In this document: in pieces, positions 16,987-34,006 of the stretch | Numbering within the stretch: the stretch's first letter is position 1 | How the letters are laid out: the number at the start of each line of letters is the position of its first letter | Source: a virus | Taxonomy: Duplodnaviria; Heunggongvirae; Uroviricota; Caudoviricetes | IMG/VR virus record: IMGVR_UViG_2734482588_000013 | DNA: 34,006 nucleotides | Strand: one strand, 5' to 3' | Program-made: the position numbers and the translations under genes | The notes under the pieces: generated by a model | Told to the model about the DNA's origin: nothing | The model's input: only the letters and a program-made list of their open reading frames with translations | Databases searched by the model: none

Positions 16987-18039
16987 TTATTTCCCCACCA
17001 GCTCGTTTATCTCTTTCACTGTCTGGTTAAACCGCTCTGACTCAAGCTCAACACCTAAGGCCCGACGCCCCAGCGCCATTGCTGCTTTTATTGTGGAACC
17101 GGATCCCATAAAAAAATCAGCAACCAGATCACCAGGTCGACTACTGGCATTGATTATTTGCCGGAGCATATCCGCAGGTTTCTCACACGGATGTTTACCC
17201 GGGTAGAACTGAACGGGTTTATGCATCCAGACATCGGTATAAGGCACGGAGACTGATACGGAGAAATAGCGCCGGAGAGATTTAAACTCATCCAGCAATT
17301 CAGAATATTTGCGATTCAGTGAATCATAAGATGCCACCAGCTGGTGGTGTGGTTGTTCCAGTTGTTGTTCCTGAAACTTCTCTGCCGCTATACGGGAAAA
17401 CAGTGCCTGTAACTTCCGATAGTCAGCCTCATTCGGCAACTGCCACTGACTGGCACCAAACCAGTGGGAAACCATATTTTTCTTACCTGTGGCTTCGGCA
17501 ATTTGTTTTGCCGTTATACCCAGTTCGGCACGAGCATCCCTGAAATACGATATCAGCGGTGCCATTATGTGCTGTTTGAGTTCCCTTTCTTTTGCCGCAT
17601 AGCCGTCACTTTTGCCGCGATATGGCCCCTGGTAATGTTCAGCAAACAGAACGCGCTCTGTGGCAGGAAAATATGCGCGCAGACTTTCTTTATTACACCC
17701 ATTCCAACGTCCGGACGGCTTCGCCCAGATGATATGGTTAAGCACGTTGAAACGTTCACGCATCATGATCTCAATATCAGATGCCAGACGATGCCCACAG
17801 AACAGGTAAAGGCTTCCGGCAGGTTTTAACACCCGCCAGAACTGGGCCAGACAGTGGTCCAGCCACTTAAGGTAATCTTCGTCCCCTTTCCACTGATTGT
17901 CCCAACCGTTGGGTTTCACCTTGAAGTAAGGCGGATCGGTAACAATCAGGTCAATGGAATCATCAGGCAGGGACTGAATAAAATGCAGGCAATCAGCGTT
18001 GATTAAATCAACACTGTTTATTTTTACAGTATTTTTCAT
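16987..18039 (-). CDS. DNA methyltransferase, beta-class amino-MTase (N6-adenine or N4-cytosine)
   Basis: Motif IV DPPY near the N-terminus (LIVTDPPYF) and motif I FxGSGST near the C-terminus (FFMGSGSTI); an internal insertion of about 150 aa includes an HTH-like stretch. Confidence 0.85.
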   Translation of the reverse strand: MKNTVKINSVDLINADCLHFIQSLPDDSIDLIVTDPPYFKVKPNGWDNQWKGDEDYLKWLDHCLAQFWRVLKPAGSLYLFCGHRLASDIEIMMRERFNVLNHIIWAKPSGRWNGCNKESLRAYFPATERVLFAEHYQGPYRGKSDGYAAKERELKQHIMAPLISYFRDARAELGITAKQIAEATGKKNMVSHWFGASQWQLPNEADYRKLQALFSRIAAEKFQEQQLEQPHHQLVASYDSLNRKYSELLDEFKSLRRYFSVSVSVPYTDVWMHKPVQFYPGKHPCEKPADMLRQIINASSRPGDLVADFFMGSGSTIKAAMALGRRALGVELESERFNQTVKEINELVGK

Positions 18040-18663: not shown

Positions 18664-19110
18664 ATGAATAAAATGACTGTACTATTACTTAGCGCAACTA
18701 TCATTTCAGGTTGTACTTCTTCCGTACCATTGATAAAGAAAACTCAATCAGGAAAACCTGAGGGGGTTTATCAAAATACGACAAAAGATAAAGTCAAAGA
18801 TGCCCTTGTGAATTACTGCAATAGTAGAGGGTTGATAATTTACAACGCGGATAACAGCAGTGTTATATGTGGTAAAGAACTGGAAGGCGGGTCTGCTGTT
18901 TTTGGACAAATGTTAATCGGCAATGCCTATTCAACAACCCCGGTATCAAAAGTCAGATTTACTATCGCTCAAGTTAATAACGATACAAAAGTGTGGGCCG
19001 ATATGTGGATGGAAACTCAAATGGCAATGGGGCAAGTACAACAAATGGCTATAACAGACAACGCAAGCAAAAACACTATCCAACAACGTCTTGATGAATT
19101 AAAACCTTAA
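18664..19110 (+). CDS. lipoprotein of unknown function (moron)
   Basis: 148-aa ORF with a signal peptide and lipobox (LSATIISGC). AT-rich, opposite in orientation to the late operon, with its own AT-rich upstream region. Confidence 0.7.
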   Translation: MNKMTVLLLSATIISGCTSSVPLIKKTQSGKPEGVYQNTTKDKVKDALVNYCNSRGLIIYNADNSSVICGKELEGGSAVFGQMLIGNAYSTTPVSKVRFTIAQVNNDTKVWADMWMETQMAMGQVQQMAITDNASKNTIQQRLDELKP

Positions 19111-19194: not shown

Positions 19195-19560
19195 CTAACG
19201 ATCCATCTCTAGCTCAATTTCTAACATCATTAACATGCCATCAACTACACCTTCAGCCTTTTGCAATAAACGCCCAACCCAGCAATCAGAACGCCCATGT
19301 TTACGGGCAAGCGCCATAAACGTCATACCACCTACATAATAATCCACTAATAAATCGTGCAAATCGCTGTTGTTCTTTTTCAGGCGAGCCATGCATCCAC
19401 AAATGATCATCGCGTCATCGTCACAACATTGCGGGCGGGATTTTACTTTTGAAGGGATTAGTCCTTTAAATCCTGCAGCAATAGACGACCAAGTGACATC
19501 CTCGTGATTATTTGCCACCCATGCCCCCCAACGTTCAAGAACCATTTGAATATCACGCAT
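19195..19560 (-). CDS. Q: late antiterminator Q (QuuD-like family)
   Basis: Protein [14 protein letters not shown]...[31 protein letters not shown] matches remembered E. coli prophage Q homologues. Start at the internal Met with GGAG 7 nt upstream. Confidence 0.85.
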
Positions 19561-19577
19561 CAACTTTCTCCACAAAA

Positions 19578-32439: not shown

Positions 32440-32475
32440 TTTTCCCGGGTGCAGCCGGTTTTGATGGAGAAAATT

Positions 32476-32757
32476 ATGAACACCTTGTTTTTACTGATGG
32501 CTGAATTCAATACCCCAAACATTGAACTCTCAGCAATTAGCCAAAAGTACTTTGGTATGAGTCCAGCCACGGCAGAAGCAAAAGCAAACGCTTGTAAGTT
32601 GCCCGTTCCAACATATCGCATCGGCACATCACAAAAAGCAAAACGTTGCATCAATATTCAGGATCTTGCGGAATACATAGACAAAAGGCGAGAAGAAGGA
32701 CGTATCGAGTGGGAACAGGTCAGAACAGTCAAACAGAAGGGCAAAGAACATCACTAA
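32476..32757 (+). CDS. PrtN/excisionase-like small DNA-binding protein
   Basis: About 93-aa ORF at the distal end of the early-left operon (where xis usually sits), with a KLPVPTYRIGTSQKAKRCINIQDLAEYID motif. Confidence 0.5.
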   Translation: MNTLFLLMAEFNTPNIELSAISQKYFGMSPATAEAKANACKLPVPTYRIGTSQKAKRCINIQDLAEYIDKRREEGRIEWEQVRTVKQKGKEHH

Positions 32758-32759
32758 AG

Positions 32760-32786
32760 AAAAAACCCGCCTGAAGGCGGGTTTTC
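32760..32786. terminator. bidirectional intrinsic terminator
   Basis: AAAAAA-CCCGCC-tgaa-GGCGGG-TTTTCAAAAA, between the convergent early-left operon and the minus-strand accessory cassette. Confidence 0.7.
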
Positions 32787-32804: not shown

Positions 32805-32978
32805 TCATGCTGCTTTGCGACGACGAAGCTTACCCTGCTGCTCTTTACCAGAGACAGTAGCGTGAGTGAACGCATTAGGAACAGCCTTCATCAGAACTTC
32901 AACAGCAGCCCCCATACCTGCGAATGCTTTCATTGTGTCGAACTTAACCTGTGGCTTGGTTGCTTTTTGATCTTTCAT
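32805..32978 (-). CDS. hypothetical small protein (57 aa, below the ORF-track cut-off)
   Basis: Hand-translated: MKDQKATKPQVKFDTMKAFAGMGAAVEVLMKAVPNAFTHATVSGKEQQGKLRRRKAA. GGAG 6 nt upstream of the ATG; terminator directly downstream. Confidence 0.4.
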   Translation of the reverse strand: MKDQKATKPQVKFDTMKAFAGMGAAVEVLMKAVPNAFTHATVSGKEQQGKLRRRKAA

Positions 32979-33017
32979 AGAAAACTCCAGAAGCTATACC
33001 GAAAAAATTCCTGTTGT

Positions 33018-33437
33018 TTACTCATCATCAATAGATGATACGCAATATTTATTTTTAAATTTAAGGTTCTTTGGCGTAACTTCATCAGATATATCAAAAC
33101 CGTCCAGAATTCTATTGAATGTAGCTTCTGGCATATCATCATGAACAGAAATCTCACCCGATCGCTGCTTTCTAACCATGTTATCCACTCGCCAAATTAT
33201 AGCTTCAGCGTAAACAACATAACTTGGATGCTTGATAAAGCGATGATCACCAGAATTCAAGACGCAAGACGGATCGTGGGGGACACCATCCTTGATACTA
33301 GAAATATTAACAACTAAAACACAATAACAATCGTTAACGGGGTAATAAACAGGATCATTACAAATCACATGAAGATGATTGCATGGCCCAGTTGGGGCAA
33401 GCACAGTTCCTTTCCTGTATGGCTGATAATCCGTCAT
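33018..33437 (-). CDS. uncharacterised protein, candidate toxin partner of the Panacea-domain protein
   Basis: 139-aa ORF whose start overlaps the Panacea ORF stop (ATGA). AT-rich, no recognisable family; Cys/His-rich N-terminal half. Confidence 0.5.
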   Translation of the reverse strand: MTDYQPYRKGTVLAPTGPCNHLHVICNDPVYYPVNDCYCVLVVNISSIKDGVPHDPSCVLNSGDHRFIKHPSYVVYAEAIIWRVDNMVRKQRSGEISVHDDMPEATFNRILDGFDISDEVTPKNLKFKNKYCVSSIDDE

Positions 33438-34006
33438 GATAATTGCAAAGAAAATTCCTTAAGTTTCTGAGATTCTTCCATTTTGCCAATTATACGATTA
33501 GCCTCATCCTCGCTTTTACCCTCACTGATCAGCATTTCTTTCAGGTCTATAGGCTTACGAGAATTGCCAGGATTGTGCCACTCTGGACAAACGCTTTCTA
33601 AATGCGTCATGTTTGCGAGATCAAATCGGTTCATATGCCCATACAGAGAATAGATTTCATCTAAAATCCGGATATCTGCACGGCTCAACTCATCAAAGAC
33701 CTCGTCTGCATCCATTTCCCTCGGATCTGAACGCAACAACACATCATGCCCGTTCGTCTCTATCAAGTTGTACCAGTAGTCACCAATGCCTTCAGCCTTA
33801 CCACGAATCAAGTTCAGCGTATTCGACATGACTGGACCAAATTTCATAGAGTAAAGGCTATCTTCGCCGATCATCCTGCCATGCTTCAAAATCGACTTGC
33901 GGTTAGACAGATAGAGCAGCTTCATCAATTTCAGATATGCCATGCGCCCACCTCGCTTAAGAAGTAGGTATGCAGCCATTTGAGCTACTTTTTCTTCGCA
34001 AAACAT
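33434..34006 (-). CDS. Panacea-domain (DUF4065) protein, PanA/SocA-like antitoxin candidate
   Basis: Motifs YLKLMKLLYLSNRKS...GEDSLYSMKFGPVMSNT fit the Panacea domain pattern. The ORF starts at the window edge, so the true start may lie beyond it. AT-rich and opposite in strand to the adjacent phage operon. Confidence 0.6.
   Translation of the reverse strand: MFCEEKVAQMAAYLLLKRGGRMAYLKLMKLLYLSNRKSILKHGRMIGEDSLYSMKFGPVMSNTLNLIRGKAEGIGDYWYNLIETNGHDVLLRSDPREMDADEVFDELSRADIRILDEIYSLYGHMNRFDLANMTHLESVCPEWHNPGNSRKPIDLKEMLISEGKSEDEANRIIGKMEESQKLKEFSLQLS

Follow-up and report, generated by a model that had tools for sequence, protein, structure and literature searches.

Whether a Panacea-domain gene, the overlapping gene behind it and a third small ORF at the end of a prophage form a toxin-antitoxin module, and how much of the locus belongs to it, is the question addressed here. 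The window (the whole stretch of DNA analysed, 34,006 nucleotides) is a lambdoid prophage with tail genes, a gpA-type terminase, Q, a cI-like S24 repressor and an early-left operon, the terminal genes of which encode a 3'-5' exonuclease and then a PrtN-type excisionase. A sequence-only reading had described three co-directional minus-strand ORFs in an AT-rich block at this end and proposed a novel toxin-antitoxin or defence cassette. The three ORFs were confirmed (Table 1), as was the composition of the block, panAT having 41.2% GC versus 50.8% for the window and falling within the lowest 2% of same-sized windows. With a probability of roughly 0.75, positions 33018-34006 are considered to be a two-gene type II PanAT module, horizontally acquired as 1.2-kb cargo in the xis-attP slot of a dusA/zur-integrated prophage. 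In such a module panT would be translationally coupled, free PanT would block translation, probably as an endoribonuclease, and PanA would bind and neutralise it; the 57-aa ORF would be an independent gene left by a cassette swap.

Table 1. Features identified at the right-hand end of the window.
Feature	Position	Strand	Basis or remark
panA, 190 aa	33434-34006	minus	ORF confirmed; PF13274
panT, 139 aa, putative toxin	33018-33437	minus	MazF/Kid/CcdB-like predicted fold with an extra C-terminal helix; Kurata cluster T6
panA/panT stop/start overlap ATGA (-4), coupling translation	33434-33437	minus	read from sequence
57-aa ORF, phrog_2741	32805-32978	minus	backbone or remnant gene, outside the module
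Left edge of the ~1.2-kb PanAT cassette	32988-32991		homology with pair-less prophages stops
Intrinsic terminator	32761-32786	minus	11-pair stem (6 GC pairs) and T-run
PrtN-family excisionase (xis), last gene of the convergent early-left operon	32449-32757	plus	PF11112, E 7.6e-23; phrog_1300 excisionase

The Panacea gene and its overlapping partner

The 190-aa product, previously read as Panacea/DUF4065-like, matched PF13274 (SocA_Panacea) with an E-value of 1.8e-18 and 67.9 bits, against a Pfam gathering cut-off of 25.7. The Panacea domain spans residues 27-137 of PanA, leaving a C-terminal extension of about 50 aa; in RefSeq the protein is named 'Panacea domain-containing protein' (WP_000458583.1). 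The window ends with the ATG of panA, and the ORF is complete, as shown by alignment of its N-terminus with the N-termini of 24 homologues. Beyond the window, about 127 nt 5' of this ATG, lies a candidate sigma-70 promoter, TTGACC-17-TAAACT, which is a consensus match only; a search of the panA leader for an inverted-repeat operator was negative. The ATGA shared by the panA stop and the panT start stood as described.

The hairpin that closes the minus-strand unit, between the stop of the 57-aa ORF and the convergent xis stop, had been called a bidirectional terminator. Its minus-strand part held, with an 11-pair stem and a T-run; on the plus strand, however, the hairpin was not flagged by the terminator scan and just four T follow the stem, so that bidirectional termination is plausible from the sequence but a weaker case. 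No Rfam match rose above the gathering score, and the sub-threshold matches were caused solely by this terminator, lending no support to an RNA antitoxin.

The 139-aa product had been described as unrecognisable, and this proved true of sequence models: no significant match was found in Pfam, NCBIfam or PADLOC, and phmmer and hmmsearch against the PDB returned nothing. A word-indexed search retrieved 62 relatives, none of them named, while an exhaustive profile search retrieved 2,693 family representatives at E <=1e-3 (917 at E <=1e-10), counted at 50% identity; PanT therefore belongs to a large unmodelled family and is not an orphan. The N-terminus is conserved in this family (M..Y.PYRKGT), which identifies the ATG at 33437 as the true panT start. 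The toxin as annotated by RefSeq/PGAP (WP_014640052.1) has 128 aa and begins at GTG 33404 (L001:7319-7705), losing 11 conserved N-terminal residues, the invariant G10 among them. Between the window and phage Lys8385Vzw, panT shows two synonymous and no non-synonymous codon differences. Among 127 aligned sequences (the window protein and 126 family members), H21, D55, C58, H65 and Y76 are conserved at 98-99% (H21 at 99%) and G63, F67, S72, G113 and S117 at 90-94%; an invariant Arg is absent from the family. At 90% identity, clustering grouped the 190-aa PanA and the 139-aa PanT together with 232-aa and 128-aa variants, seemingly an artefact of clustering or annotation that stems from the overlapping genes.

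The association of the two genes was surveyed by a pattern scan that took a single genome from each species and was based on alignment A1, the diverse alignment A2 being too variable. The scan gave 26 loci in gamma-, beta- and alphaproteobacteria, 24 of which had readable upstream sequence, and in all 24 an ORF stops at, or shortly ahead of, the start of the toxin gene. These partners are 117-227 aa long (mostly 184-227, the shortest running into masked sequence) and PanA aligns with each of them over its full length. A PF13274 gene lies directly 5' of the toxin homologue in 24 of the 24 genomic loci and likewise in three of three phages, namely the P2-like Pseudomonas phage Sirocco, Yersinia phage YeP1 and Klebsiella phage ST13-OXA48phi12.5. 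The two genes overlap or are separated by less than 50 nt, with a -4 or -1 overlap in most homologous loci, and the genes 3' of panAT are not conserved across these genomic and phage loci. The cargo position also differs: YeP1 carries the pair beside int, Sirocco has it near its portal gene, and the window prophage has it in the xis-attP slot. Since unrelated temperate phages carry the pair at different positions, panAT can be regarded as a mobile two-gene module.

Predicted fold and relation to known systems

In its predicted structure, PanT was recognisable after all. An alignment-based AlphaFold model was confident (pLDDT 89.7, pTM 0.83) and its fold matched MazF, Kid and CcdB, the SH3-like barrel being that of MazF and CcdB. 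In an independent search with Foldseek, the 42 best matches were all MazF chains, with probabilities up to 1.0 and marginal E-values (7e-3). PemK-like proteins were among the top matches in a viral structure library, and MazF and Kid ranked above CcdB in both fold searches. PanT is confidently predicted by the model to be a divergent protein of the MazF/Kid fold.

The catalytic Arg/Thr pair of EcMazF is R29/T52. In the PanT model, H21 is placed in the β1-β2 hairpin, S46/S47 at the end of a long strand (37-47), D55, C58 and H65 in an ordered loop (48-71), and S72 and Y76 at the start of the strand 72-83. In a loose, co-linear and non-significant alignment, H21 falls at or next to R29 of MazF and S46/S47 fall on T52/T53, so these residues may re-equip a MazF-type site. 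RNase chemistry is not assured, because the family has no invariant Arg and H21, D55, C58 and H65 differ from the MazF residues. No match to PF02452 was found for the window PanT, and of 71 family members a single one came even as close as E 0.11. A comparison by hhalign of the PanT-family profile with a profile of four MazF sequences, which had been checked against the PDB, gave a probability of 0.4%, which is not significant. As these sequence-profile comparisons were not significant, the MazF link rests on the predicted structure and on the HHpred result of Kurata et al. (2022).

PanA antitoxins and PanT toxins were defined by Kurata et al. (2022, PNAS 119:e2102212119, PMC8832971), whose Dataset S1 arranges the toxins in clusters. 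In the accessible part of this dataset, cluster T6 has the antitoxin gene first, mostly with overlaps of -4 or -1, and bears the HHpred label 'EndoA/PemK/MazF-family RNases'. The entries listed there include the toxin of Yersiniaceae 2016Iso4 (WP_101821906.1), a pair from Pantoea septica LMG 5345 and the tested PanT of Pseudomonas moraviensis (WP_083201923.1). The first of these toxins was also a match in our search (P0213), with 57% identity to the window PanT, and the P. septica toxin (locus L009/P0035) showed 56% identity. The P. moraviensis PanT inhibits translation specifically, and not replication; PanA neutralises it, and the two proteins co-purify (PMC8832971).

The termini of the P. 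moraviensis toxin derived from cloning primers (MPGNIL…IRQNNF) had no exact match among the fetched proteins, and judging from sequence its link with the window PanT rests on shared T6 membership and on the pair of phage Sirocco. The Sirocco toxin is 48% identical to the window PanT and starts with MPGIIF, compared with MPGNIL in the P. moraviensis primer, and both pairs have a -1 overlap. Moreover, the Sirocco PanA begins with (V)IFSEQKVAQ, the ten N-terminal residues that were restored to the P. moraviensis PanA by Kurata et al. (PMC8832971). Because close relatives are listed in T6 and because of the Sirocco resemblance, the window pair is assigned to the already catalogued PanAT class; it is a new example and not a new kind of system. 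The cassette can no longer be called novel, as its toxin family is already present in PanT cluster T6, with one member tested, according to Dataset S1 (PMC8832971).

The likeness to the P. moraviensis system extends to a stand-alone Panacea antitoxin of about 185-190 aa with the N-terminus MF/IFSE.KVAQ, to the same gene order and overlaps, and to a toxin of about 130-140 aa with a MazF-like predicted structure and no CDD or Pfam model. The setting differs: the window pair occupies the xis-attP slot of a lambdoid prophage, whereas the P. moraviensis locus carries the flag 'NotPhage' in the available rows of Dataset S1, among which the window pair itself was not found. Several Pasteurellales T6 'toxins' in the same rows carry the NCBI name 'terminase' (PMC8832971). 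These names may be mis-annotations, or T6 may be heterogeneous, which affects the weight of shared cluster membership.

Compared with MazEF and Kid-Kis (PemIK), the window antitoxin is a Panacea protein and not an AbrB-/RHH-type MazE or Kis, while PanT lacks a sequence match to the PF02452 family of those toxins, conserves H21, D55, C58 and H65 instead, and has an extra helix (122-131) and the long ordered loop. The type VI system SocAB of Caulobacter crescentus is similar in that SocA carries the SocA_Panacea Pfam domain, but PanA scored only 13.5 bits against the cut-off of 190 of the NCBIfam SocA equivalog NF047745 and the window toxin is MazF-like in its predicted fold. The PanAs of Kurata et al. 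also bind their toxins directly, with no ClpXP-adaptor neutralisation (PMC8832971).

An exchangeable cargo slot between xis and attP

Prophage ends near xis/int had been named as hotspots for defence and toxin-antitoxin morons, and judging from genome comparison the site adjoining xis and attP is indeed a variable cargo slot. Of 5,426 complete E. coli genomes, 205 (~4%) contain the 1.3-kb region with 98-99.9% identity, as do phages Lys8385Vzw and SKA5. In strain APEC 102026, no further prophage gene separates the Panacea gene from chromosomal zur, and in phage Lys8385Vzw a divergent integrase begins about 455 bp beyond it. Prophage and phage sequences are alike for about 262 bp 5' of the panA ATG and then diverge, and the end of this likeness marks the att junction. 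The suspicion that the locus was truncated, with partners further upstream, was not upheld: in complete genomes, a mere 270 bp or so of phage DNA precedes host DNA or the divergent integrase, and hence there is no upstream partner gene.

Both edges of the cassette could be placed. The right edge lies about 193 bp past the window end, 5' of panA, at the start of a 77-bp attP arm (L001 8501-8577) that is common to mEp460 and O157 prophages with different cargo. On the left, about 360 E. coli genomes without the pair match only positions 1-289/292 of the query, which correspond to window 32700 to 32988/32991, so that homology ends about 10 nt 5' of the ATG of the 57-aa ORF. In these genomes, in phage mEp460, in O157 and in Salmonella, a 177-aa gene (phrog_4350) is found where panAT would be; its product had no match in Pfam, PADLOC, NCBIfam or the PDB. 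The low GC content and the sharp homology breakpoints identify panAT as a cassette, and since homology breaks on both sides, the ~1.2-kb cassette is taken to have been exchanged for the 177-aa gene while the 57-aa ORF remained. The xis-attP junction of dusA-integrating lambdoid prophages thus represents an exchange slot for alternative cargo cassettes.

The 57-aa ORF and the 177-179-aa phrog_4350 gene travel together, the latter about 180-195 nt upstream (L033:3106-4009; L039:2283-3174; L043:2280-3174), and in Enterobacter and Franconibacter the 177/179-aa and 57-aa pair is located between Q/RusA and the lysis genes. This looks like a mobile two-gene moron across two phage slots, of which the window keeps the 57-aa half only. 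Prophages of this family are inserted at the 5' end of dusA, beside zur (L001:8308-8711; L033:4096-4260). In O157 a displaced 35-codon fragment from the 5' part of dusA is directed towards the cargo slot, so that transcription from host dusA might continue into cargo genes.

Proposed function and alternative readings

The 139-aa ORF is best read as a cognate toxin, because of the pairing in 27 of 27 other loci and because a relative is found in a cluster with a tested toxin; the earlier proposal that it is neutralised by the Panacea protein is well supported on these comparative grounds. Besides the domain, predicted fold, conserved pairing, cluster membership and cassette boundaries found for the window pair itself, a course of action can be suggested by analogy. 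PanA and PanT would be made from one coupled transcript, with PanA neutralising PanT by direct binding. Either the Panacea core or the C-terminal tail might serve, as both modes exist among PanAs according to the NetFlax study (PMC10440598). Free PanT, like the P. moraviensis T6 member, would block protein synthesis, probably by cutting RNA at its MazF-like face. The role of the module may be prophage stabilisation, abortive-infection defence or both. A function would thereby be proposed for a gene pair that about 4% of complete E. coli genomes contain and of which the toxin gene bears just the annotation 'hypothetical', with an N-terminally truncated start.

The 57-aa ORF had also been put forward as a possible third component, which as a regulator, chaperone or second antitoxin of the Panacea pair would make this a three-component system. 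It lies on the same strand with its own SD, as previously noted (GGAG, 7 nt 5' of the ATG), and probably shares the panAT transcript in the window, since there is no terminator between panT and the ORF and all three genes end at the common one. Such a system is nevertheless highly improbable. The ORF occurs without the pair in the approximately 360 E. coli genomes, with homology breaking just in front of its own ATG, and wherever panAT is absent (in E. coli, Salmonella, Enterobacter and Franconibacter) it always follows the 177-179-aa phrog_4350 gene; conversely, it was found downstream of panAT in none of the 24 genomic and none of the three phage loci. Its product is conserved in length and core across genera; its AF2 model was poor (pLDDT 60) and the synonymous and non-synonymous differences were too few for an informative count. 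From these gene neighbourhoods, the 57-aa ORF is regarded as an independent backbone or remnant gene that shares the terminator and is not part of the module.

As to the toxin, its MazF-like scaffold could carry another activity, such as CcdB-like gyrase poisoning or a metal- or Cys/His-dependent chemistry of H21, D55, C58 and H65. This is doubtful, given that the tested T6 member inhibited translation and not replication (PMC8832971) and that CcdB ranked below MazF and Kid; the position of H21 beside the catalytic Arg and of S46/S47 on T52/T53, in an alignment that is loose and non-significant, suggests that the same site may simply have been re-equipped. It is possible, if somewhat unlikely, that the pair is a prophage accessory that is either non-toxic or active only under certain conditions, such as an abortive infection system that senses phage through Panacea. 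A sensory role for Panacea was hypothesised by the NetFlax authors (PMC10440598), panAT occupies cargo slots in several temperate phages (YeP1, Sirocco and the window prophage), and some phage-borne PanA-linked candidates, one from E. coli included, were non-toxic in E. coli (PMC8832971), which also counts against the preferred reading of the window pair. However, the PADLOC-DB 2.0 defence models gave no match at E <=1 for PanA, PanT or the 57-aa protein, no defence phenotype is reported for T6, and a sensory accessory would be compatible with the toxin-antitoxin reading and not exclusive of it. Both ideas can be combined: with its catalytic residues replaced by the near-invariant His21, Asp55, Cys58 and His65, the T6 PanT would be a mechanistically new toxin (using metal-dependent or Cys/His chemistry, or hitting a new target), and its prophage Panacea partner would sense infection and release it in abortive-infection defence. 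This combination is considered rather unlikely. As the T6 PanT family is large and has no Pfam model, a tractable member in an E. coli prophage would offer a convenient entry point to its target and to the possible sensing of phage infection by Panacea.

Elsewhere in the same prophage, a 148-aa ORF without a Pfam match (18664-19110, plus strand) lies in an island of 37-40% GC, oriented opposite to its neighbours and flanked by a DNA methylase gene (16987-18039) and the Q antiterminator gene (19195-19575). This position is likely a second moron slot.
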